From positions 1-48,412 of the forward strand of contig JBKPQP010000141.1 of NCBI GenBank assembly GCA_046734155.1: 48,412 bases of DNA. The letters are read 5' to 3'. Positions 104 through 38,170 of the stretch are shown here, piece by piece. This DNA comes from Actinomycetota bacterium. GTDB taxonomy: Bacteria > Actinomycetota > Thermoleophilia > Gaiellales > Gaiellaceae. The translations under genes were made by a program, and so were the position numbers. How positions within the stretch are numbered: the stretch's first letter is position 1; each line of letters starts with the position of its first letter. A model generated the notes under the pieces. That model was given only the letters and a program-made list of their open reading frames with translations. It had not been told where the DNA came from and searched no databases.

Positions 104-1090
104 CGCCGTCGTCGTCGTCCCGGGTGTCGAGGATGGCGTGGGAGTGTTCGAACCGTTGTCGCTTGCGATCAGCGCAAGCGCTATTCCCGCCACGATGAGC
201 AGGGGCACGCCGATAAGCGCCGCGAGCAACCACGGCCGCCGCCTCGGACGGGGCTGCGGGATCACCTGAGTGGCCGCTTCGCCCGCGATGGGAACGTGCA
301 TCCCTGAGAGCAGCCCGACGAGCGTCCGTCCGTCCGGCGGGCGATCCACCGGCGATTTGGCCATCGACTCCTCGGCCACTGCTGCGAGCCTCGTCGGAGC
401 ATCGGGCCGAAGCGAGTGAATCGCAGGCGGAGCCTCGTACTGCTGGCGGCGTAGCAGGTCGACCGGGTTTGCCGCCTCGAACGGGAGCCGTCCGGTGAGC
501 ATTCGGTACAGGATCACGCCGAACGCGTAGACGTCGCTCGCAGGCGTGGCGCCCTCGCCGGCAGCCTGCTCCGGAGACATGTAGGCGGCCGTGCCGATCA
601 GCGTCCCCGCCTCGGTCAGCGTGTCCACTCCGGCCATGCGCGCAATGCCGAAGTCCGAGACCTTGGCGCGGCCCTCCTCGTCGAAGAGGACGTTGGCCGG
701 CTTGAGGTCGCGATGGACGAGGTCGTGCTCGTGTGCGTACGCGAGCCCGGCAGCTACGTCAGTGGCAATCGTTCCCGTCTCTGCATCGGGGAGCGGGCCG
801 CCGCTGTCGCCGAAACGCTCCTCGAGCGTGCCGCCGGGGAGGTGCTCGAAGACCATGAACGGCCGGCCGCCTTCGCTCCCGTAGTCGTAGAGACGGCAGA
901 TGTTCGGATGCGACAGCGAGGCGACAGCGCGTGCCTCCCGCTCGAAGCGCTGCGGGTCGGCGTTGGCGCGCAGGAGTTTGAGCGCAACCTCACGACCGAG
1001 CTGCGTGTCGGTCGCGAGCCAGACCTCGGCCATCGACCCCGCTCCCAGCTGCTGCTCCAGCCGATAGCGGCCGGCGAACGTCTCGCTCAT
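1..1090 (-). CDS. Hanks-type Ser/Thr protein kinase, single-pass membrane protein; the C-terminus runs off the window
   Basis: Absent from the ORF track because the frame is open to position 1. Minus-strand translation from ATG 1090 gives MSETFAGRYRLEQQLGAGSMAEVWLATDTQLGREVALKLL (Gly-loop and VAxK). HRDLKPANVLF is the complement of 683-715, followed by DFGIA and MSPEQ. Then come RRRPWLLAALIGVPLLIVAGIALALIA (TM, about 165-245) and a Ser/Thr/Pro tail. Confidence 0.9.
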   Translation of the reverse strand, partial: MSETFAGRYRLEQQLGAGSMAEVWLATDTQLGREVALKLLRANADPQRFEREARAVASLSHPNICRLYDYGSEGGRPFMVFEHLPGGTLEERFGDSGGPLPDAETGTIATDVAAGLAYAHEHDLVHRDLKPANVLFDEEGRAKVSDFGIARMAGVDTLTEAGTLIGTAAYMSPEQAAGEGATPASDVYAFGVILYRMLTGRLPFEAANPVDLLRRQQYEAPPAIHSLRPDAPTRLAAVAEESMAKSPVDRPPDGRTLVGLLSGMHVPIAGEAATQVIPQPRPRRRPWLLAALIGVPLLIVAGIALALIASDNGSNTPTPSSTPGTTTTAPPPPPPPPPPPPPPPPPPPPPPPPPPPPPPPPPP

Positions 1091-1103
1091 CCGGCAGTAG
1101 CTT

Positions 1104-2312
1104 ATGGGCGGCTTGGCCGGGACCGGAAATCTCATTTCGATCGACGAGGCGCGCCGCCTGGTCCTGGAGCGCGTCGAGCGCCTACCGGCGGAGAGCATCC
1201 GCCTCGAAGCCGCGCAAGGCCGGGTGCTCGTCGACGATGCACCTGCGACCGTCGATCTGCCGCCGTTCGACAGCTCCGCGATGGATGGCTTCGCCCTGCG
1301 CTCGGCCGACACGCCTGGGCGGCTCCCAGTCGTCCACCGCGTCGCCGCAGGAGCTCCGGCGCCCCGTGCACTCGAAGCCAACGAGGCGATGGGCATTGCG
1401 ACGGGCGGCCTGGTTCCGGCGGGTGCAGATGCCGTCACCCCCTTGGAGGATGTTGTCGAGTCTGCCAACACAATTGAAATCGAGCAGACCGTCGAGCGGG
1501 GTGCGAACGTTCGTCCCGCAGGTGGAGACAGCGCAGCAGGCGAGACGGTCGTGGAGGCAGGGACGCGCCTCGAGGCCCGCCACCTTGCCGCGCTCGCCGC
1601 GGCGGGCGTTCCGGAGTTGCGGGTCGCCAGGAGGCCGTGGGCCGCCGTCGTCGTGACGGGCAGCGAGCTTCGACCGCCGGGCGAACCGCTCGATGCGGGA
1701 CAGATCTACGAAGCGAACGGGATCTTGCTCGAGGCGCAGCTCCTTTCGGCCGGCGCCGAGGTCGAGCGGGCGAGGGCGGTCGTGGACGAGGAGGCGGCCC
1801 AGCGCGAAGCCCTCGCACATGGGCTCGAGGCCGACGTGCTCGTGACCTCGGGTGGGGTCTCGGTCGGCCCGCACGACCTGGTTCGGGCAATCCTGGGCGA
1901 GCTCGGCGTCGAAGAGGTCTTCTGGGGCGTCGCGGTCAAGCCCGGCAAGCCGATCTCGTTCGGCGTCGCTGGGCGCCGGCTCGTGTTCGGCCTGCCAGGA
2001 AATCCGGTCTCGGTGCTCGTCGGCTTCGAGCTCTTCGTTCGTCCCGCTCTGCTGGCACTGCAGGGCTGCGCCGATCCCGGGCCGCAGTTCGAGCGAGGCG
2101 TGCTCGGTTCGAGGCTCACGCGAAACCCGGCTCGAGACGAGCTCGTGCGCGCGCGGGTTCGCCGGCCCTCGGACGGCCCGGTGCTCGAGCCGCTCGCGGG
2201 ACGCGAGTCACACATGATCGCGCGCGCGGCCGCGGCGGACGCGCTCGTCCTCATTCCACGTGGAAACGGTGACCTGAGCGCCGGCGAGGCCGTCGAGTTC
2301 CTGCGGATCTAG
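1104..2312 (+). CDS. moeA: Molybdopterin molybdenumtransferase MoeA
   Basis: 402-aa ORF. N-terminal ISIDEARRLV and PPFDSSAMDGFALR. MoCF-binding core VVVTGSELRPPGEPLDAGQIYEANG ... LVTSGGVSVGPHDLV. C-terminal beta-barrel domain. Confidence 0.9.
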   Translation: MGGLAGTGNLISIDEARRLVLERVERLPAESIRLEAAQGRVLVDDAPATVDLPPFDSSAMDGFALRSADTPGRLPVVHRVAAGAPAPRALEANEAMGIATGGLVPAGADAVTPLEDVVESANTIEIEQTVERGANVRPAGGDSAAGETVVEAGTRLEARHLAALAAAGVPELRVARRPWAAVVVTGSELRPPGEPLDAGQIYEANGILLEAQLLSAGAEVERARAVVDEEAAQREALAHGLEADVLVTSGGVSVGPHDLVRAILGELGVEEVFWGVAVKPGKPISFGVAGRRLVFGLPGNPVSVLVGFELFVRPALLALQGCADPGPQFERGVLGSRLTRNPARDELVRARVRRPSDGPVLEPLAGRESHMIARAAAADALVLIPRGNGDLSAGEAVEFLRI

Positions 2313-30740: not shown

Positions 30741-32288
30741 ATGCCGGACATCGGTCATCTTCTGACCCAGATCGGCGCTATTGCCCTGATCTGGCTACCG
30801 CTGCTGATGGTCGGGCTGATCTGCTACCTGCTGTGGCGCACGCTGCAGGTGATGCCCCGCGTCCAGACCAAGTCGACCAGCACGAGCTCCGAGTCGTCGG
30901 TCTCGTGGGACGAGGTCGCCGGGCTCGAGGAGGCGCGCCACGAGATGCAGGAGATCGTCGACTTCCTCAAGGACTCGAAGCGCTTCGCGAAGCTCGGCGC
31001 GCGCGTGCCGAAGGGCATCCTGCTCTACGGGCCGCCGGGAACCGGGAAGACGCTCCTCGCCAAGGCCGTCGCCCGCGAGTCGGGCGCGAGCTTCTACTCC
31101 CAGAGCGCCTCGGCGTTCGTCGAGATGTTCGCTGGGCTCGGCGCGGCCCGCATCCGCAAGCTCTTCGAGCAGGCGCGCAAGGACGCGCCGGCGATCGTGT
31201 TCATCGACGAGCTGGACGCGGTCGGCACCGCGCGCAGTGGAAGCGGCTTCAACCGCGAGCAGGACCAGACGCTGAACCAGCTGCTCGTCGAGCTGGACGG
31301 CTTCGCGAATCGCGACCAGGTGGTCGTCATGGGAGCGTCGAACCGGCTTCAGGACCTCGATGCCGCTCTCTTGCGCCCCGGACGTTTCGACCGCCAGATC
31401 CTCGTCTCGCCGCCAGACCTCGCCGGACGCGAGGCGATCCTCCACGTGCACACGCGAGGGAAGCCGCTCGCTTCCGACGTCGACCTCGTGGCGATCGCGC
31501 GCCAGACCTCTGGCCTGACCGGAGCCGACCTCGCCAACATCGCAAACGAGGCCGCCATCTTCGCCGGCCGCGAGAATCAGCAGCACATCCACCACGTGCA
31601 CTTCGAGAACGCGTTGGAGCGCGTCATCGCAGGCCTCCAGCAGCGTCGTGTGATGACCGAGAAGGAGAAGCGGATCCTCGCCTTCCACGAGGGCGGCCAC
31701 GCGCTCATGTCGTACCTGATGGGCGAAACCTTCCCGGTCCAGAAGGCGACGATCGTCCCCCGCGGCCAGGCCCTCGGGTACACGTTCAACCTGCCCTCGG
31801 AGGACCGCTACCTGCACACGCGCGAGGAGTTCATCGACTGGATGAAGATCGCCCTCGCCGGCCGCGCCGCGGAGCAGGTCGTGTTCGGGCGGGTTACGAA
31901 CGGCGCCGCGAACGACCTGGAGAAGGTGACCGAGCTCGCGCGCTCGATGGTGTTCGAGTACGGCATGTCCGAGGGAGTCGTCTCACGGACGATGCGCGCC
32001 GACAACTACGCGCTGTCCGAGGAGACGAAACGCGTGCGCGACCAGGAGCAGGCGCGCCTCACCGACGACGCCTACGCGGAGGCCGTGCGGCTGATCACGA
32101 AGCACCGCACCGCGCTCGACCGGCTCGCTCAGGCGCTGCTCGAGAAGGAGACGCTCGTCCGCGACGAGATGCTCGCGCTCTTGTCCGACGTCGAGCCCGA
32201 GTCGCGCGCGAGCGAGACCGTCGGCCGGGTTGTTCCCCTGCCGCGCGCCGAAGAAGCCCCCGACGGAGCCACCCCCGGCAGCCGATAG
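30741..32288 (+). CDS. FtsH-family ATP-dependent zinc metalloprotease, short form without a periplasmic domain
   Basis: Walker A GPPGTGKTLLAKA, Walker B IVFIDELD, SRH LLRPGRFDRQI, zinc site AFHEGGHAL. Only one N-terminal hydrophobic stretch (IGAIALIWLPLLMVGLICYLLW). The AAA module begins near residue 55. 515 aa. Confidence 0.85.
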   Translation: MPDIGHLLTQIGAIALIWLPLLMVGLICYLLWRTLQVMPRVQTKSTSTSSESSVSWDEVAGLEEARHEMQEIVDFLKDSKRFAKLGARVPKGILLYGPPGTGKTLLAKAVARESGASFYSQSASAFVEMFAGLGAARIRKLFEQARKDAPAIVFIDELDAVGTARSGSGFNREQDQTLNQLLVELDGFANRDQVVVMGASNRLQDLDAALLRPGRFDRQILVSPPDLAGREAILHVHTRGKPLASDVDLVAIARQTSGLTGADLANIANEAAIFAGRENQQHIHHVHFENALERVIAGLQQRRVMTEKEKRILAFHEGGHALMSYLMGETFPVQKATIVPRGQALGYTFNLPSEDRYLHTREEFIDWMKIALAGRAAEQVVFGRVTNGAANDLEKVTELARSMVFEYGMSEGVVSRTMRADNYALSEETKRVRDQEQARLTDDAYAEAVRLITKHRTALDRLAQALLEKETLVRDEMLALLSDVEPESRASETVGRVVPLPRAEEAPDGATPGSR

Positions 32289-32300
32289 CATCCTCTTCGC

Positions 32301-32705
32301 GTGAGGGCGAAGGGGATTCACCATCTCGGCGTGGCCGTCGACGACCTCGACGAGGCGGTCGACACGTATGAGCGAATGTTCGGCGCCGAGGTCGAAGGCC
32401 GAGACACACTCGAATCGCAGGGTGTGGAGGCGGTCGCGGTTCGGCTCGGCCAGAGCCGCGTCGAGCTGCTCGGGTCGCTCGGCGAGGACACGCCCGTCGG
32501 CCGATTCCTGTCCAAGCGCGGCCCCGGGATGCACCACGTGGCGTACGAGGTCGACGACCTGCCGCAGGGGCTCGCAGACCTCGCCGGGCAGGGTGTGCAC
32601 CTGATCGACGACGTCCCGCATCGCGGTCTCTTCGGCCTGCAGGTCGCTTTCGTGCATCCTGAGTCCGTGCATGGTGTGCTGGCAGAGTTGGTGACCCTTG
32701 GCTGA
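32301..32705 (+). CDS. mce: Methylmalonyl-CoA epimerase (VOC/glyoxalase fold)
   Basis: IHHLGVAVDDLDEAVDTYERMFG, VELL, GPGMHHVAYEVDDL, AFVHP. 134 aa. Confidence 0.8.
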   Translation: MRAKGIHHLGVAVDDLDEAVDTYERMFGAEVEGRDTLESQGVEAVAVRLGQSRVELLGSLGEDTPVGRFLSKRGPGMHHVAYEVDDLPQGLADLAGQGVHLIDDVPHRGLFGLQVAFVHPESVHGVLAELVTLG

Positions 32706-32922
32706 GGACCGGATCCGGATCGAGATCGGCTTCGACGGAGGCCAAGTGATGAGCGCGCACGTCCAGACGTCGGTCGCGGACGAGCTCGAGCAGTCGCTGA
32801 ACGGCGGCTCCGGCGCCGCCCAGATCGAGGCCGAGGACGGGCGCTACACGATTTCGCTCGCACGGGTCGTCTATGTCAAGCGGTTTTCGCGCGAAGGCCG
32901 CGTCGGTTTCAGCGGCGGCTAG
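32698..32922 (+). CDS. DUF3107-like small conserved actinobacterial protein
   Basis: 74 aa from TTG 32698. IRIEIGF...ELEQSL...IEAEDGRYTISLARVVYVKRFS...RVGF is colinear with my recollection of DUF3107. Overlaps the mce stop by 8 nt. Confidence 0.55.
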   Translation: MAEDRIRIEIGFDGGQVMSAHVQTSVADELEQSLNGGSGAAQIEAEDGRYTISLARVVYVKRFSREGRVGFSGG

Positions 32923-32967
32923 CTCGCTGGTTACAAGGCGCGCTCCAGCGGGCACCACCCTCAGTGG

Positions 32968-33537
32968 ATGGCGCAAGGAGCGGCGACGAGCATCGGCTAC
33001 AGCGCAGCGGTCGACCTGCGTCTCCTGGTCGCGCGGGCTCAGCAAGGCGACCGCGCCGCGCTCGAGGAGCTCTATCTCCTCCACTTCGATCGCATCTACA
33101 GCTACCTGCACGTCAGCGTCCGCAACCGCGTCGACGCCGAAGACCTCACGACGCAGACCTTCCTCAGGATGCTCGAGTCCATCGGTCGCTTCCGCTGGCA
33201 GTCGGCCCCCTTCTCGGCGTGGCTGTTCCGGATCGCGCACAACCTCGCCATCGACCACTTCCGGGCCCGGAGCCGCGTTCAGGCCGAGGAAGACGTGTTC
33301 GAGCTCGACGAGGAGGCTTCGGCCGAAGAGCACGCGCTCCAGTCGATCGAGCGGGACGGGGTGCTCGAGCTGATCGACCACCTGTCGCCGGAGCAGCGCC
33401 AGGTGCTGGCGCTGAAGTTCCTGTTCGACTTTGGGAACGCCGAGACGGCTGCGATCCTCGACAAGACGGAAGGCGCGGTGAAGTCCCTCCAGCACCGCGC
33501 GCTCGCCTCGCTCGAGAGACAGCTCGTCCGCTCGTAG
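32968..33537 (+). CDS. ECF-type RNA polymerase sigma-70 family factor
   Basis: Region 2: DAEDLTTQTFLRMLESIGRF, FSAWLFRIAHNLAIDHFR. Region 4: LSPEQRQVLALKFLFDFGNAETAAILDKTEGAVKSLQHRALASL. No recognisable anti-sigma gene downstream. Confidence 0.85.
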   Translation: MAQGAATSIGYSAAVDLRLLVARAQQGDRAALEELYLLHFDRIYSYLHVSVRNRVDAEDLTTQTFLRMLESIGRFRWQSAPFSAWLFRIAHNLAIDHFRARSRVQAEEDVFELDEEASAEEHALQSIERDGVLELIDHLSPEQRQVLALKFLFDFGNAETAAILDKTEGAVKSLQHRALASLERQLVRS

Positions 33538-33550
33538 TAGCGTCTCGGCG

Positions 33551-34471
33551 ATGCCGCTCGATGTCGGGATCGTCGGCCTGGCCGGAGCCGGGAAGACGAC
33601 GCTGTTCACGGCCTTGACCGGGGTTTCGCAGACCGCGTACGGCCAGGAACACGTGGGTGTCGCTCCCATTCCGGACGAGCGGCTGGAGCCGATCGCCGAG
33701 GTCGAAGGGTCCGCCAAGACGACGCCGGCCACGGTCAAGCTCGTCGATCCGCCGGGGCTGAGCGCGGCCGTCCTCGGGGAGCTGCGGAAGGCCGACGCGC
33801 TGCTCGCCGTCCTGCGCGGCTTCGGCCCGGACGCGGATCCCGCGCACGATCTCGAGACGATCGGCCTCGAGCTCGTCGTCGCCGATCGCGACCACGTCGA
33901 GAAGAGGCTCGAGCGCGTGCGGACGATGGCGAAGGGCGGTGACCCGCGGATCCGCGACGAGGTGGCCGAGCTGGAGCGCATCCTGGCGCACGTCGAGGCC
34001 GGCGGCCCCCTCAGCGCCTACGAGCGCGAGTTGCCGGCGGAGCTCGAGCCGCTGACGGCGAAGCCGGTCGTGCAGATCGTCAACGGCGACGGCGGCATCG
34101 ACCTGAAACTGGAGGCCGAGATCGCCGAGCTCTCACCCGAGGAGGCGGCAGACTTCCGCGACGGGCCCGGCGGCTTCGAGCAGGTGCTGTCGAACCTGTT
34201 CGAGACGGCGGGCCTGCTCACGTTCTTCACCGGCGGCGAGAAGGAGACCCGCGCTTGGACGCTCGGGCAGGGCCACACCGCGCTCGATGCGGCGGCGACG
34301 ATCCACACCGACATCGCGCGCGGGTTCATCCGCTGCGAGGTGATCGCGTGGCGCGACCTCGTGGAGGCGGGGAGCCGCGCCGAGGCCGCCCGCCGCGGCC
34401 GACAGCGGTTGGAGGGAAAGGACTACGTCGTCGCCGACGGAGACATCCTCAACATCCGCTTCAACGTCTAG
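33551..34471 (+). CDS. YchF/Obg-like P-loop NTPase with C-terminal TGS-like domain (short form)
   Basis: P-loop GIVGLAGAGKTTLF. KLVDPPG (G3-like). DLETIGLELVVADRDHVEKRLERV. C-terminal DIARGFIRCEVIAWRDL...LEGKDYVVADGDILNIRFNV. 306 aa, against about 360 for canonical YchF. Confidence 0.7.
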   Translation: MPLDVGIVGLAGAGKTTLFTALTGVSQTAYGQEHVGVAPIPDERLEPIAEVEGSAKTTPATVKLVDPPGLSAAVLGELRKADALLAVLRGFGPDADPAHDLETIGLELVVADRDHVEKRLERVRTMAKGGDPRIRDEVAELERILAHVEAGGPLSAYERELPAELEPLTAKPVVQIVNGDGGIDLKLEAEIAELSPEEAADFRDGPGGFEQVLSNLFETAGLLTFFTGGEKETRAWTLGQGHTALDAAATIHTDIARGFIRCEVIAWRDLVEAGSRAEAARRGRQRLEGKDYVVADGDILNIRFNV

Positions 34472-34476
34472 ACGGG

Positions 34477-34527
34477 CTAGCCGCAGTCGCAGTCCGGGCC
34501 GCACTCGCAGTCGCAGTTGCAACTCAT
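34477..34527 (-). CDS. Unannotated 16-codon Cys-rich ORF, candidate minimal metallothionein-like peptide
   Basis: On the minus strand: GGAAGGAGG (complement of 34534-34542), a 6-nt spacer, ATG (34527), then codons for MSCNCDCECGPDCDCG and TAG (34479-34477). Six Cys in C-x-C spacing. Divergent from arsR. Too short for the ORF track. Confidence 0.55.
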   Translation of the reverse strand: MSCNCDCECGPDCDCG

Positions 34528-34556
34528 TGCGCGCCTCCTTCCATCGATGATTGTCG

Positions 34557-34578
34557 ATGTAACGTCTAGCTGTTACAT
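34557..34578. promoter_or_regulatory. Candidate ArsR/SmtB operator: inverted repeat ATGTAAC-N8-GTTACAT
   Basis: Perfect 7-bp arms (34557-34563 and 34572-34578) around GTCTAGCT. It sits in the AT-rich 63-bp gap between the mini-ORF ATG (34527) and the arsR ATG (34591). It overlaps a TACATT -10-like hexamer (34574-34579). Confidence 0.5.
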
Positions 34579-34590
34579 TGAAGTTTGTCA

Positions 34591-34962
34591 ATGAAGAAGC
34601 TCGCGACGATCACTTGCTGCGCGCCCGGCGCTCCGCCGCTGAAGCCGAAGGAGTTCGAGAGCCTCTCGGCGAGCTTCAAGGCGCTCGGCGACCCCACACG
34701 GCTCGCGATCGTCAACCGCCTGGCGAACCGGGACGCCGCATGCGTCTGCGAGTTCGATTCGCTGGGCCTCTCCCAGCCAACGATCTCGCACCACCTGAAG
34801 GTGCTGCGCGAGGCCGGCCTGATCGAGGTCGCCTACAAGCGGCGTACGTTTTCGTTCTACCGCTTGGTACCAGAGGCCGTGGAGGCGCTCGCCTTCGCGC
34901 TCGGCGGCGCGCCTCAGCCGGAGCTCGTGCTCGCGACCGCGGAGGGCACGGTTGCCCGCTGA
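34591..34962 (+). CDS. arsR: ArsR/SmtB-family metalloregulatory repressor
   Basis: ALGDPTRLAIVNRL, metal-site helix AACVCEF, recognition helix LSQPTISHHLKVLREAGLI, plus an N-terminal Cys pair (ITCCAPG). Start taken at ATG 34591; the track lists TTG 34585. Confidence 0.85.
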   Translation: MKKLATITCCAPGAPPLKPKEFESLSASFKALGDPTRLAIVNRLANRDAACVCEFDSLGLSQPTISHHLKVLREAGLIEVAYKRRTFSFYRLVPEAVEALAFALGGAPQPELVLATAEGTVAR

Positions 34963-35344
34963 GAAGGTCCTTTTCGTCTGCATCGGGAACGCGGGGCGTT
35001 CGCAGATGGCGCAGGCGTTCGCCGAACGGGCGGGGCTCGAAGCGCGGTCGGCCGGCTCGCATGCGGAGTCGCAGGTCCACCCCGAGGTGGTCGAGGTGAT
35101 GCACGAGCTCGGCATCGACCTCAGCGGACGCGTCCCGCACCAGCTGACGGACGAGGACGCCGAGTGGGCCGACCTCGTCGTGACGATGGGCTGCGGCGAC
35201 GCCTGTCCGGTCCTGCCCGGCAAGCGCTACCTCGACTGGAAGATCCTCGATCCGATGGGACTGCGAGTCGAGATAGTGCGCGAGATACGCGACGAGATCG
35301 CCGGTCTCGTCGACGAGCTCGCTACTCAGGCACCGGCCGCGTAG
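34952..35344 (+). CDS. arsC: Arsenate reductase, low-molecular-weight phosphatase family (thioredoxin-coupled type)
   Basis: P-loop VLFVCIGNAGRSQMAQAF (CX5R-S) and downstream Cys pair TMGCGDACP. The TTG start overlaps the arsR stop by 11 nt. Confidence 0.85.
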   Translation: MPAEKVLFVCIGNAGRSQMAQAFAERAGLEARSAGSHAESQVHPEVVEVMHELGIDLSGRVPHQLTDEDAEWADLVVTMGCGDACPVLPGKRYLDWKILDPMGLRVEIVREIRDEIAGLVDELATQAPAA

Positions 35345-36155
35345 CGGCGACCGCGTCGAGCTGGTTCGCGTGGTAGAGCACTGCGGCCTCGGCGGTGCGA
35401 GCGGCGCGCGCGTCGTGATGCGAGCCGACCGCGTGCAGGAGCTCTGCGCGCACACCGGCCTCGAGCGGCGCCGCGCGTTCCTCGATCATGCGCAGCCCCA
35501 GGTGGACGTGCCCGAGCAGGCGGCCCTCATCGGTCGGTTTGAAGACCGGGCCGCGCGTCAGCTCGCCGGTGCGGCCGACGTCGTGGAGGAGCGCAGCGGC
35601 GAGCAGCAGGTCGGCCCGGAGTCTCGGATGGAGCTGCGCAACCTCACGGCAGATCGTCGCGACCCCGACCGTGTGCTCGAGCAGCCCGCCCGCGTAGCTG
35701 TGGTGGCCGTCGACCGTCGCAGGCAGGGCACGCAGCCGGCCGCGCAGGTCGTCGTCGCCGACGAAGCGCCCGACCGCGGCCTTGAGGCCGGTGTGCGAGA
35801 TCTCGCCGGCGAGGAACTCGAGGAAGCCTTCGAGCTCGTCTCCGTCGCGACGGAGGCTCGGCGCGAGCGACTCCGGATCGAGATCCTCCGCCGGCTCGAG
35901 GGACCGGATCTCGAGCTGGAGCCGGTCGCGGAACCGGTCGACGCGGCCCAGCACCCGCACGGCGTCACCCTCGTCGAAGCGGCCGTCGAGCAGGTCGACG
36001 TCGCTCCAGACGCGCGCCTGGATGCGTCCGCTGGGATCGACGAGCTCGAGAGCGAGGTATGGAGCGCCTGCCCGTGTGCGCAACCGCTCCTTCTTCGCAA
36101 CCGCGTAGACGCCCTCGACGACGCGGTCCTGCTCGAGCTCGGCGATCGCTGACAC
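35322..36155 (-). CDS. OB-fold + HD-domain phosphohydrolase (YhaM-like 3'-5' exoribonuclease family)
   Basis: N-terminal OB fold (VEGVYAVAKKERLRTRAGAPYLALELVDPSGRIQARVW). HD domain (GGLLEHTVGV, AALLHDVGR, HHDARA). Confidence 0.75.
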   Translation of the reverse strand: MSAIAELEQDRVVEGVYAVAKKERLRTRAGAPYLALELVDPSGRIQARVWSDVDLLDGRFDEGDAVRVLGRVDRFRDRLQLEIRSLEPAEDLDPESLAPSLRRDGDELEGFLEFLAGEISHTGLKAAVGRFVGDDDLRGRLRALPATVDGHHSYAGGLLEHTVGVATICREVAQLHPRLRADLLLAAALLHDVGRTGELTRGPVFKPTDEGRLLGHVHLGLRMIEERAAPLEAGVRAELLHAVGSHHDARAARTAEAAVLYHANQLDAVAATRPVPE

Positions 36156-36287
36156 GTCCCGAGTCTAGGTCCGGAAACGGACGTGTTGACCCTGTTCTGA
36201 GAGCGACGTCAGGCTGGCGCGGAGCCCGGCTCCGCCGGGCGGGAGCGGCAGCCGGTCAGGGCGGGGTCGATGGTACGGTGGCGCGCG

Positions 36288-37361
36288 ATGGCGGAGATCA
36301 AGCCGTTTCGGGCGCTTCGCTACGACACGGATCGAGCCGGTCCCCTCGAGGACCTCGTCGCGCCGCCGTACGACGTGATCGGGCCTACGGAGCGTGAGGA
36401 ATACCTCGCCCGCAGTCCGTACAACGTCGTCCACCTGACGCTGCCCGACGACGAAGAGGAGGCGGGCCGCGACCTGCGTTCGTGGCGCGAGAGCGGCGTG
36501 CTCGCGACCGAGGAGCCTGCGTTCTGGGCGCTCTCCCAGGACTACGTCGGCCCGGACGGTGTCGCGCGCACGCGGGCCGGCGCCGTCGTTTCGCTCAAGG
36601 TCGAGCCATACGCGAGTGGGACGGTCATGCCGCACGAGCGGACGCACCGCGGCCCCAAGGAGGGGCGGCTGAGGCTCCTGCGAACGACGCAGACGCAGCT
36701 CGAGCCGATCTTCCTCCTATACGAGGGACAGGCCCCGTTCGAGGTTCCCGAGCGCGAGTCGGAGCTGGAGGTCGAAGGCGCACGGCTCTGGCGGCTCGAG
36801 GACGACGGCATCGCCGACGCGTTCGCCGACCGGCGCCTGCTGATCGCCGACGGCCACCATCGGTACGAGACCGCGCTCGCCTACCACGAGGAGACGGGAA
36901 CTCCGGCGAGCGGGTACATGATGGTTGTCCTCGTCAGCCTCGAGGATCCGGGTCTCACGATCTTTCCCACGCACCGGGTCTTCCGCGAGCCGCCGCCCGA
37001 ACTGCTCGAGGGCGAGCGTCGCGCCGATCCGAAGTCCGCGCTCCAGGAGCTGGAGGAGCTCGAGCGCGGCCGCGCCGCGGTCGTGGTCTACGACGGCCGC
37101 ACGGAGCTGGCGGTCGACGGGGCGGGCGAGCTCGACGTGCAGCTCGTCGACCGCCTCGGACAGGAAGGCCTCAGCTACACCGCGGACTGGCGCGAAGCGG
37201 TCCGTGCTGTCGACGAGGGCGAGGCGGCCGTCGCCGTGCTCATGCGCCCGACCCGCATCGAGGACGTCTTCGAGGTCGCCGCGCGAGGCGAGACGATGCC
37301 GCAGAAGAGCACGTACTTCTATCCAAAGCTCATTTCGGGGCTGCTCTTCCACCCGTTGTGA
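36288..37361 (+). CDS. DUF1015-family protein
   Basis: MAEIKPFRALRYD, LVAPPYDVI, VVHLTLP, MPHERT, IADGHHRYETAL, KSTYFYPKL are family hallmarks. ATG 36288 is preferred over ATG 36270. Confidence 0.8.
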   Translation: MAEIKPFRALRYDTDRAGPLEDLVAPPYDVIGPTEREEYLARSPYNVVHLTLPDDEEEAGRDLRSWRESGVLATEEPAFWALSQDYVGPDGVARTRAGAVVSLKVEPYASGTVMPHERTHRGPKEGRLRLLRTTQTQLEPIFLLYEGQAPFEVPERESELEVEGARLWRLEDDGIADAFADRRLLIADGHHRYETALAYHEETGTPASGYMMVVLVSLEDPGLTIFPTHRVFREPPPELLEGERRADPKSALQELEELERGRAAVVVYDGRTELAVDGAGELDVQLVDRLGQEGLSYTADWREAVRAVDEGEAAVAVLMRPTRIEDVFEVAARGETMPQKSTYFYPKLISGLLFHPL

Positions 37362-38170
37362 GCCCCTGGCTCGAGCTCTGCCGCGCCGCTGTCGGCGACG
37401 TCCGCCAGGTGCTCGACGGCATGCCGAGCCGCAACGAGCGCGAGCCCGTCGTGGGCGCGGGCAAGGGCGGCGACGACACGACTGCCGTCGACGCCGCGGC
37501 CGAGGCAGCGATCCTCACGCGCCTCGAGCGGCTGCACGCCGACGAGGGGATCGACTTCCACCTCGTCTCCGAGGAGCTCGGCGAGCGCACCTACGGCCTG
37601 TCGCCGGCGACCCACGTCGTGGTCGACCCGATCGACGGCTCGCTGAACGCGAAGCGCAACATCCCGTTCTTCTCCGTCTCGATCGCTGTCGCCGAGGGGC
37701 CGACGATGAAGGACGTCGTCTTCGGCTTCGTCCACGACTTCGGGTCCGGCGAGGAGTGGACCGCGACGCGCGGCGAAGGCGCCTGGCTCGACGGCGAGCG
37801 GCTCGGCGCGATTGCGCCGAAGGACAAGATCGAGGTGCTCGCGCTCGAGGCGACGGTCGCGGCGTCGATCGCGGACAAGGCCGTCGCGTTCGCGCCGCTC
37901 GCGCATCGCCTGCGAGTTATGGGCTCGCTTGCGCTCTCGCTCTGCTATCTCGCGGCCGGTCGCGTCGATGCGGTGTGCTCCCTGAAGGAGGCGCGCGCGG
38001 TCGACATCGCGGCTGCGCAGCTCCTGCTGCAGGAGGTCGGACTGCCGATCATCTTCGTCGACGCCGGCCCGTTCGGCGAAGGCCCGCTCGACACCGCGGC
38101 GCGGTCACCCGTTGCGGCCGCGGGGACGCAGGAACTCTGTGAACAGCTGGCCCACATCATCGCCACGTGA
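37358..38170 (+). CDS. Inositol monophosphatase / FBPase-family phosphatase
   Basis: GTG 37358 overlaps the DUF1015 stop (GTGA). DDTTAVDAAAE, VSEELGE, VVDPIDGSLNA (metal-binding DPIDG), VDIAAAQLL. 270 aa, which looks full length. The stop is TGA at 38168-38170. Confidence 0.85.
   Translation: MSPWLELCRAAVGDVRQVLDGMPSRNEREPVVGAGKGGDDTTAVDAAAEAAILTRLERLHADEGIDFHLVSEELGERTYGLSPATHVVVDPIDGSLNAKRNIPFFSVSIAVAEGPTMKDVVFGFVHDFGSGEEWTATRGEGAWLDGERLGAIAPKDKIEVLALEATVAASIADKAVAFAPLAHRLRVMGSLALSLCYLAAGRVDAVCSLKEARAVDIAAAQLLLQEVGLPIIFVDAGPFGEGPLDTAARSPVAAAGTQELCEQLAHIIAT

Follow-up and report, generated by a model that had tools for sequence, protein, structure and literature searches.

A conserved ultra-short cysteine-rich gene divergent from an ArsR-family repressor in uncultured soil Actinomycetes: a candidate arsenite-binding peptide

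Can a frame of only sixteen codons be a gene, and what would its product do beside a metal-sensing repressor? This question is raised by a short region of contig JBKPQP010000141.1 from an actinobacterium of the Gaiellaceae, analysed here as one stretch of 48,412 nucleotides (nt) that is called the window in the following. Between ychF and arsR, the gene of an ArsR/SmtB repressor, the minus strand carries a Cys-rich open reading frame (ORF) behind a Shine-Dalgarno (SD) sequence, divergent from arsR (Table 1). A first-pass annotation had described this mini-ORF as the candidate gene of an ultra-short metallothionein. Its coordinates for the mini-ORF, the SD sequence, an inverted repeat, arsR and ychF were all found correct upon re-reading of the sequence and its translation, and the identities of the neighbours as ArsR/SmtB and YchF were confirmed by Pfam and NCBIfam. 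From the comparisons reported here, an assignment of the system to arsenic and a role of the encoded peptide as chelator appear probable.

The predicted product MSCNCDCECGPDCDCG has 16 amino acids (aa) with six Cys (about 40% of its residues) and four acidic residues; aromatic residues and His do not occur. The ATG of the mini-ORF lies 63 nt from that of arsR (34591), and the stop codon of ychF is found at 34469–34471. With a GC content of 46% compared to 69% window-wide, the intergenic gap (34528–34590) is indeed unusually AT-rich, as had been noted before, and it is the sole place in the 48-kb window with a 63-nt stretch of such composition. The DNA pattern of the Cys spacing has a single match in the window; 100 shuffled versions gave none. 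Among the ORFs of 8–45 codons in the 48 kb, the mini-ORF is the only one with at least five Cys. Its occurrence is beyond chance.

Relatives of the locus were collected in two ways. A first scan of one genome per species with the back-translated pattern CxCxCxCGPxCxC gave at least 119 matches, mostly off-frame noise in GC-rich DNA; this kind of scan is biased to intact ORFs. It yielded syntenic orthologues in four genomes of uncultured Actinomycetes (L007, L012, L019 and L038), which share the ychF end, the SD sequence and the inverted repeat with the window. The peptides are MKRCDCNCDCGPDCDCDCCDCC in L007, MKSCACNCDCGPGCDCGCC in L019 and MKRCDCDCECGPDCDCGCC in L038. Compared to the window, the flanking genes are identical to about 88%, the SD/operator stretch to 88–92% and the mini-ORF to 76–84%, with every Cys codon retained. 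The second sample was built via ArsR alone. Starting from an alignment of 37 orthologues, and with the pattern CC[AS]PGAPPL or GL[SA]QPTISH required, 80 metagenome loci were obtained whose ArsR is 66–96% identical to that of the window. Since retrieval proceeded through ArsR only, this sample is unbiased toward intact mini-ORFs. Relatives of the window ArsR number in the thousands in soil metagenomes. At least 130 nt upstream of arsR were available for 73 loci, giving 74 regions together with the window.

A search for ultra-short Cys-rich ORFs near ArsR genes had been proposed by the first-pass annotation. In the ORF-blind loci of the window's ArsR clade it has a clear outcome: a divergent Cys-rich ORF of 12–23 codons with 6–10 Cys and an SD sequence accompanies arsR in 71 of the 74 regions. 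Under a strict filter (SD sequence, complete ORF, at least six Cys) 70 regions remain, compared to 0.03 per dinucleotide-shuffled set (maximum 1 in 200 sets) and none on the opposite strand. A codon alignment of the 19 variants nearest to the window contains TGC or TGT in the Cys columns with two replacements only (Ser, Tyr). The columns between the Cys vary among D, N, E, A, G, S and T, and all indels are whole codons. An SD sequence of the AAGGAG/GGAGG class at a distance of 4–8 nt from the start is present in 59 of 61 distinct relatives, in 41 of them as AAGGAGG. The conservation of frame, ATG and SD sequence, which had been named earlier as a check of the proposal, is thus observed, with changes at non-Cys positions or silent between TGC and TGT. 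An ATG further upstream, at the end of palindrome B (see below) and opening extensions of the type MEGG..., was considered as start and rejected. It is in frame in just 24 of the 61 distinct loci and in the window opens MEGGAQ followed by a stop codon, so that the SD-led start is the conserved one. Because the Cys are kept, SD sequence and start are conserved, indels comprise whole codons and the ORF occurs in 71 of 74 regions, these comparative data make it almost certain that the mini-ORF is a real, translated gene selected for its cysteines.

The three regions without a mini-ORF (L153, L157 and L164) have other DNA directly upstream of arsR, in L153 with a transposase gene of the IS1595 family. 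There, the mini-gene looks like it was displaced by insertion or rearrangement. The mini-gene is tightly linked to arsR of this clade. In most loci, arsR is followed by the arsC-like gene (59 of 73) and preceded by ychF (45 of 54), and the mini-ORF is retained beside arsR in 14 loci without arsC and in 9 loci without ychF. The conserved core is therefore the pair of arsR and mini-ORF, and the mini-gene is very likely coupled to ArsR. DNA other than ychF lies downstream of the mini-ORF in L142, L143, L169–173, L179 and L193–198, and in L171, L173, L187 and L130 a convergent HD/OB gene directly follows arsR. The earlier statement that the mini-ORF cannot be a leader peptide holds in the larger sample: it converges on ychF in most loci and faces unrelated DNA in the others, and as no gene follows on the same strand this role is excluded. 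A pump of the ACR3/ArsB type was found neither in the window nor in any of the 80 loci; at such loci a role of the peptide as As(III) sink would be plausible.

In total, the family comprises 62 distinct DNA sequences coding for 58 distinct peptides of 12–23 aa with 6–10 Cys. Cys makes up about 45% of the residues (43–45%), followed by Asp (17.5%), Gly (15%), Ser (6%) and Glu (3.6%). Aromatic residues and His are rare (Y 0.2%, F 0.1% and H 0.5% of residues; one occurs in 8 of the 58 peptides), and the net side-chain charge ranges from −1 to −5. On average, a peptide contains 3.2 CxC and 2.1 CC motifs, and 54 of the 62 members end with Cys-Cys. Examples are MACCEGCDCDCC, with 12 aa the shortest member, MSDLSCCEGGCGCGCC, MSCCGTDCCDDGGGCC and MTARECCEGCDCDCDCSGGCCCC; MKSCNCDCDCGPDCDCGCC is a typical relative. 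Repeats of Asp-Cys or Glu-Cys dominate many members, and many are essentially (Asp-Cys)n, as exemplified by MRCCDCDCDCDCGCC. Small size, a high Cys content in the form of CxC and CC and scarce aromatic residues and His are the operational marks of metallothioneins, and the family carries all of them. The metallothionein-like chemistry proposed in the first-pass annotation is hence in accordance with the Cys-rich and acidic composition, from which metal binding itself would be expected.

These peptides are unseen by standard annotation because they fall below the length limits of gene callers. Searches of Pfam and NCBIfam returned no family at E ≤10 for five members of 20–23 aa and none at E ≤1 for the window ORF together with its upstream extension. 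Upon exact look-up, ten family members of 20–27 aa were absent from about 15 billion predicted proteins, and literature searches including literal peptide motifs found no description of such peptides. On a near-identical contig (L001, 3–170, minus strand) a 56-residue gene call by the Joint Genome Institute is placed directly upstream of arsR. This call matches an out-of-frame 152-aa ORF of the window (34133–34591, minus strand, starting with MTNFNVTARRYIDNHRWKEARNELQLRL...), not the 16-codon Cys frame.

What, then, does the repressor sense? Cys9, Cys10, Cys51 and Cys53 of ArsR are invariant in the 37 orthologues. The C-terminal helix region is free of His, and conserved Asp, His or Glu ligands are missing from the 37-sequence alignment; there is no Zn site of the α5 type (Asp/His/His/Glu). 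With an E value of 5.9e-14 at modest identity, the best solved relative is ArsR of Corynebacterium glutamicum (CgArsR, 6J0E), and Cys9-Cys10 align exactly with its Cys15-Cys16. The As(III) site of CgArsR is formed by this adjacent N-terminal Cys pair and a Cys of the C-(V/A)-C region in α3 (PMC11672702, section 3.2.2.3); the window ArsR has the same Cys layout. A regulator of the RexT type (7TXM, E 4.7e-10) ranks second. All best solved relatives of the arsC-like enzyme are arsenate reductases, with 3T38 on top (E 2.4e-32) and the motif TMGCGD-CP in common. Further, plasmid-borne ArsRs of cultured Rathayibacter, Amnibacterium, Streptomyces and Gordonia are 42–48% identical to that of the window and exhibit the same CC...CVC layout. 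The gene divergent from arsR in Rathayibacter is that of an arsenic transporter, and on the Gordonia plasmid arsR is followed by ACR3 and ArsC. None of the four annotated plasmid loci contains a Cys-rich mini-ORF; the mini-gene sits in the divergent slot that the transporter gene holds in the Rathayibacter locus. Since regulator and enzyme are closest to proteins of arsenic systems, the Cys pair is aligned and arsenic genes lie beside the relatives, As(III) is favoured as the most likely inducer, possibly together with Sb(III).

The control region was compared in 50 distinct aligned regions, in which the intergenic distance amounts to 56–75 nt including both start codons. The best-conserved elements are two related 18-bp palindromes, CATYGA-N6-TCRATG, here named A and B (Table 1). 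The window matches this motif nowhere else, and A and B are exact matches, where 0.35 would be expected at up to one mismatch. Palindrome A is found with up to one mismatch in 60 of the 61 distinct relatives, and both palindromes are present in 41. The first-pass annotation had instead assigned the role of a shared operator to the inverted repeat ATGTAAC-N8-GTTACAT. The repeat is perfect as described. It is kept in close relatives only, in some with compensatory changes (GTAAC/GTTAC to GCAAC/GTTGC), and is absent in the 56–59 nt variants; conservation is found in the flanking palindromes instead, whose ends form the outer ATG and CAT of the repeat. CATCGA-N6-TCGATG also occurs upstream of arsR on the plasmids of Rathayibacter (L204) and Amnibacterium (L206), which suggests that CATYGA-N6-TCRATG is a clade-wide operator.

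We infer the two promoters from the conservation of their hexamers across relatives. For the mini-ORF, a hexamer of the TTGAC[AG] class is present in 60 of 61 relatives, with TAnnnT 16–18 nt further in 42. Palindrome A contains TTGACA, the putative −35 element of this promoter, and palindrome B overlaps the putative −35 element of arsR and the predicted transcription start of the mini-ORF. Each palindrome would thereby extend over the −35 element of one promoter and the transcription start of its counterpart, so that a single repressor could shut both. An SD sequence is missing in front of arsR, and its putative −10 element ends 11 nt before the ATG. The implied leader is about 4–6 nt long, which would make the mRNA of arsR-arsC almost leaderless. 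In some database entries ArsR begins two codons earlier, at TTG 34585 (MSMKK...).

Taken together, a gene-encoded thiolate peptide that is derepressed by As(III) and acts like a metallothionein or phytochelatin, divergent from an ArsR of the As(III) type, is the reading we favour, with moderate confidence. In this mechanism, an ArsR dimer would bind both CATYGA-N6-TCRATG palindromes and repress the mini-gene as well as arsR-arsC. A soft metalloid, most likely As(III) and perhaps Sb(III), would coordinate to Cys9, Cys10, Cys51 and Cys53 and cause ArsR to leave the DNA. ArsC would convert arsenate to arsenite, and the peptide, translated from its strong SD sequence, would chelate arsenite by its Cys thiolates as a cytosolic sink or buffer. 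We infer repressor binding, release by As(III) and capture of arsenite from homology, architecture and composition; transcription of the mini-gene and its control are likewise predictions, as are the nature of the inducer and the binding of metal(loid)s to the peptide. A more far-reaching statement is put forward tentatively: uncultured soil Actinomycetes might possess a ribosomal counterpart of phytochelatins, shorter than any other known metal(loid)-binding peptide encoded by a gene (12–23 aa, essentially (Asp/Gly-Cys)n ending with Cys-Cys), as the As(III)-ArsR-switched arsenite sink of a minimal arsR-arsC module without an adjacent efflux pump.

Several observations weigh against this proposal. 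The four-Cys sensor site is also compatible with a CadC-like site for Cd, Pb or Zn, and conservation of the Cys pair in the 80 loci is partly a matter of ascertainment, since the scan patterns demanded it. The −10 element of the mini-ORF promoter in the window (TAGACG) is weak and lacks the final T, and a consensus scan found no promoter of the E. coli type in the control region; the putative arsR promoter falls below the threshold of that scan. In L012 (CAVUMW010000019.1, ~1052–1075) one extra base precedes the stop codon (…TGCTGCTTAGACG), the stop is lost and the Cys frame continues for 354 codons, antisense through ychF. Either the assembly is wrong here or the frameshift is a genuine lesion. 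The window peptide itself is atypical because it has no C-terminal Cys-Cys. At 34477–34482 it ends with ...CDCG-stop compared to ...CDCGCC-stop in most relatives (L007, L019, L038, L124–L149); TAG occupies the first terminal Cys codon and three extra nt follow. The stop codons of mini-ORF and ychF share one common CTAG in most relatives and are 5 nt apart in the window. Over the family, the Cys counts (six in 17 peptides, seven in 10, eight in 21, nine in 7 and ten in 3) display no preference for multiples of three, and the prediction of three Cys per arsenic was rejected for lack of such an excess. To sequester arsenite stoichiometrically is expensive for the cell, and the genome may encode a pump at another place.

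Four other explanations were weighed. A thiophilic cation (Cd, Pb, Zn or Cu(I)) could be inducer and ligand, with the peptide as a very short classical metallothionein under a CadC- or BxmR-like sensor and the arsC-like gene being incidental. Such a sensor would be in line with the four invariant Cys of ArsR, two N-terminal and two in CVC, as CadC uses four Cys (PMC11672702), and CxC and CC motifs, few aromatic residues and an acidic, Gly-rich composition are typical of metallothioneins. SmtB-SmtA is a documented divergon of an ArsR-family repressor and a metallothionein with a shared region of 100 bp (PMC8790569), and the Pfam model Metallothio_5 recognises a larger protein of Erysipelotrichaceae that contains a near-identical Cys motif. 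Nevertheless, we regard a cation as unlikely: the best solved relative with its aligned Cys pair is the As(III) sensor CgArsR and not CadC or SmtB, the His/Asp site in α5 is absent, arsC follows arsR in most loci, ArsRs of the same layout adjoin arsenic-resistance genes in the examined Rathayibacter and Gordonia loci, and no metal-cation transporter was seen in the examined flanks. Alternatively, the peptide might be a carrier or modulator that, like the chaperone ArsD, hands As(III) over to ArsR or to a distant pump, serves ArsC as thiol partner or titrates the inducer. That the mini-gene always accompanies arsR, even without arsC, and forms the core with it would suit such a role. The frequent CC motifs with a near-universal C-terminal pair, resembling the As(III) sites that ArsR proteins form from vicinal Cys, point in the same direction, and the few ions that one 16-aa molecule could hold are better suited to buffering or transfer than to storage. 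However, the very strong SD sequence at nearly all loci suggests high output, and the free drift of sequence and length over 58 variants argues against a specific protein–protein interface, leaving a carrier function rather improbable.

A module for thiol-oxidative, persulfide or electrophile stress, with the peptide as sacrificial thiol buffer, finds some backing in the H2O2 and persulfide sensors that exist among ArsR-family members and in the rank of the RexT-type 7TXM as second solved relative. We consider it very improbable, as the Cys layout is that of CgArsR and not that of the dithiol sites of RexT or SqrR, the enzyme groups with arsenate reductases and the related ArsRs of the examined Rathayibacter and Gordonia loci adjoin arsenic-resistance genes. 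Finally, the stretch might contain no functional peptide gene and be conserved as terminator or 3' untranslated region of ychF, because an antisense RNA against ychF begins there, or as a leader peptide. The ORF abuts ychF, transcription from its promoter would enter ychF antisense, and the L012 orthologue is devoid of a stop codon. Against this, the Cys codons persist although the nucleotides diverge beyond alignability, with SD sequence, start and whole-codon indels preserved, and the ORF persists without ychF downstream and without a following gene on its strand. An Rfam scan of 34350–34750 gave no matches, the predicted transcript of the mini-ORF region folds no better than shuffled sequences (z −0.51), and no terminator-like hairpin was found in the consensus promoter/terminator scan; explanations by an RNA element were dropped. 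On these comparative data, the absence of a functional gene appears close to refuted.

How does an arsenite-binding peptide under ArsR control compare to known systems? In the SmtB-SmtA divergon of Synechococcus PCC 7942, an ArsR/SmtB repressor and a divergent metallothionein share a short region with one or two inverted repeats (PMC8790569). Similar to this system, and to BxmR-BmtA and AzuR/AztR-NmtA, the locus described here combines a repressor with a divergent gene for a Cys-rich peptide and inverted repeats overlapping putative promoter elements. The parallel to smtB-smtA drawn in the first-pass annotation thus applies to the architecture. It does not extend to metal and homology, as As(III), and not Zn or Cd, is what regulator and enzyme suggest. 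SmtA and BmtA are several times longer and have a family model, whereas the mini-peptides of 12–23 aa have none. The SmtB type possesses an α5 Zn site and a 12-2-12 operator; here, the α5 site is missing and the half-sites CATYGA/TCRATG of the candidate operators follow a 6-6-6 arrangement. Unlike in SmtB-SmtA, the partner gene is an arsenate reductase gene and the sensor is As(III)-like. The ars system of C. glutamicum (6J0E; reductases 3T38 and 3RH0) provides the best solved relatives, the aligned Cys pair and the Cys of C-(V/A)-C in α3. In canonical ars operons, exemplified by the Gordonia plasmid, ArsR comes together with an ACR3/ArsB efflux pump; here no pump is nearby and a Cys-rich mini-gene takes the divergent slot.

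Phytochelatins bind arsenic among other metals, and their analogue EC20, translated from mRNA, has been combined with ArsR/ArsC modules (PMC4611968). As in phytochelatins, (γ-Glu-Cys)n-Gly, and in EC20, (Glu-Cys)20-Gly, acidic residues alternate with Cys in the mini-peptides. Natural phytochelatins are non-ribosomal products of phytochelatin synthase with γ-linkages, whereas the mini-peptides are encoded by an ORF, α-linked and shorter and contain CC as well as CxC; EC20 is engineered and the mini-peptides are natural. The Cu-metallothionein of Neurospora crassa has 25 aa with 7 Cys and is, to our knowledge, the smallest gene-encoded metallothionein. The mycobacterial metallothionein MymT sequesters Cu(I) in the cytoplasm of an actinobacterium (PMC11672702). 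Similar to both, the mini-peptides are very small, rich in Cys, Gly, Ser and Asp, free of aromatics as a rule and built from CxC; the Neurospora protein and MymT are longer, linked to copper and without detectable sequence relationship to the mini-peptides. A metallothionein- or phytochelatin-like peptide under an ArsR-family switch is hence of a known kind, and the ultra-short, arsenic-linked form that is invisible to annotation is new.

If the peptide binds arsenite, inducible gene-encoded thiol sequestration would be a third bacterial strategy besides efflux and methylation, one that has so far been tied to phytochelatins of plants and to engineered constructs such as EC20. The lower size bound of gene-encoded metallothionein-like molecules would then move from about 25 aa to 12–16 aa. 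The mini-gene is also a clean case of a conserved micro-gene overlooked by annotation pipelines, and its arrangement with ArsR is conserved in dozens of uncultured soil actinobacteria. With about 500 bp for palindromes, mini-gene and arsR, the module could be of possible use as a compact part for arsenic biosensors or bioaccumulation.

Table 1. Positions of the mini-gene, its control region and the adjacent genes in the window; promoters and operators are putative.
Feature	Position	Strand	Details
Mini-gene	34477..34527	minus	ATG 34527-34525, 15 more codons, TAG 34479-34477; product MSCNCDCECGPDCDCG
Shine-Dalgarno GGAAGGAGG	34542-34534	minus	spacer to mini-ORF ATG 6 nt
Palindrome B CATCGATGATTGTCGATG, CATCGA-N6-TCGATG	34542..34559	both	candidate ArsR operator, abuts SD
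Palindrome A CATTGAAGTTTGTCAATG, CATTGA-N6-TCAATG	34576..34593	both	candidate ArsR operator, spans arsR ATG
Inverted repeat ATGTAAC-N8-GTTACAT	34557..34578	both	bridges the palindromes, holds both putative -10 hexamers
Putative mini-ORF promoter	-35 34586-34591; -10-like 34563-34568	minus	-35 TTGACA, 17-nt spacer, -10-like TAGACG; read from sequence
Putative arsR promoter	34551..34579	plus	-35 TTGTCG 34551-34556, 17-nt spacer, -10 TACATT 34574-34579; 8/12 consensus
arsR, ArsR/SmtB repressor	34591..34962	plus	Pfam HTH_5 55.8 bits; NCBIfam NF033788 76.5 bits, cutoff 55
arsC-like arsenate reductase, low-molecular-weight protein tyrosine phosphatase (LMW-PTP) type	34952..35344	plus	Pfam LMWPc; overlaps arsR stop
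ychF	33551..34471	plus	convergent neighbour; end mark of the mini-ORF transcription unit, outside the system

In the wider surroundings (31983–38170), the module is located amid housekeeping-type genes without an obvious mobile island. The neighbours code for an FtsH-like AAA protease, a glyoxalase-fold protein, an extracytoplasmic function (ECF) sigma factor, YchF, an HD/OB-fold protein, a DUF1015 protein and a member of the inositol monophosphatase family. The gene order around the module is kept across loci in which YchF is only about 61–65% identical. An alternative sequence beginning inside the control region (...TTGACAnnTATCGGGATTGTRTAC...) is shared by the few arsR loci that lack the mini-ORF (L153, L164, L157, L192 and L199). 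Features of L153 are located at 379–1302 (+) and 1566–2447 (−), and L153 and L164 each encode a protein of about 290 aa without a Pfam family.

Cys-rich sequences of other kinds were encountered as well. A near-identical module, CxCGCGCGPDCDCGCQ(D/E)G.ECTC, occurs in metagenome-assembled genomes (MAGs) of Clostridia (L050, L036, L024, L061, L069, L072, L074, L018 and L120), in L017 (Planctomycetaceae) and in L044 (Erysipelotrichaceae), where it is part of larger acidic proteins of 150–685 aa and in some cases tandemly repeated. The L044 protein matches Pfam Metallothio_5 with 31 bits (cutoff 25) and that of L036 a LysW-like zinc ribbon; the remaining module proteins have no family. The pattern scan also returned short Cys-rich ORFs in MAGs of Caulobacteraceae (L108, 2854–2988), Euryarchaeota (L116) and Chloroflexia (L022), among them a 44-aa frame MPTETCPCETCTCQPCRCACACGPNCQCGEACACSAPAKTEPSE with the SD sequence AAGGAGA and a 19-aa archaeal one, MSCGCYCRCGPECNCRRGD. 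A CxC-rich tail such as CRCCGCGCKCGPKCNCCKKK terminates membrane proteins of about 80 aa in MAGs of Chlamydiota and Verrucomicrobia and in unclassified ones (L015, L034, L057, L078, L079, L091 and L102). For the L079 protein DUF378 was confirmed, and these tails may be membrane-anchored thiolate tails.

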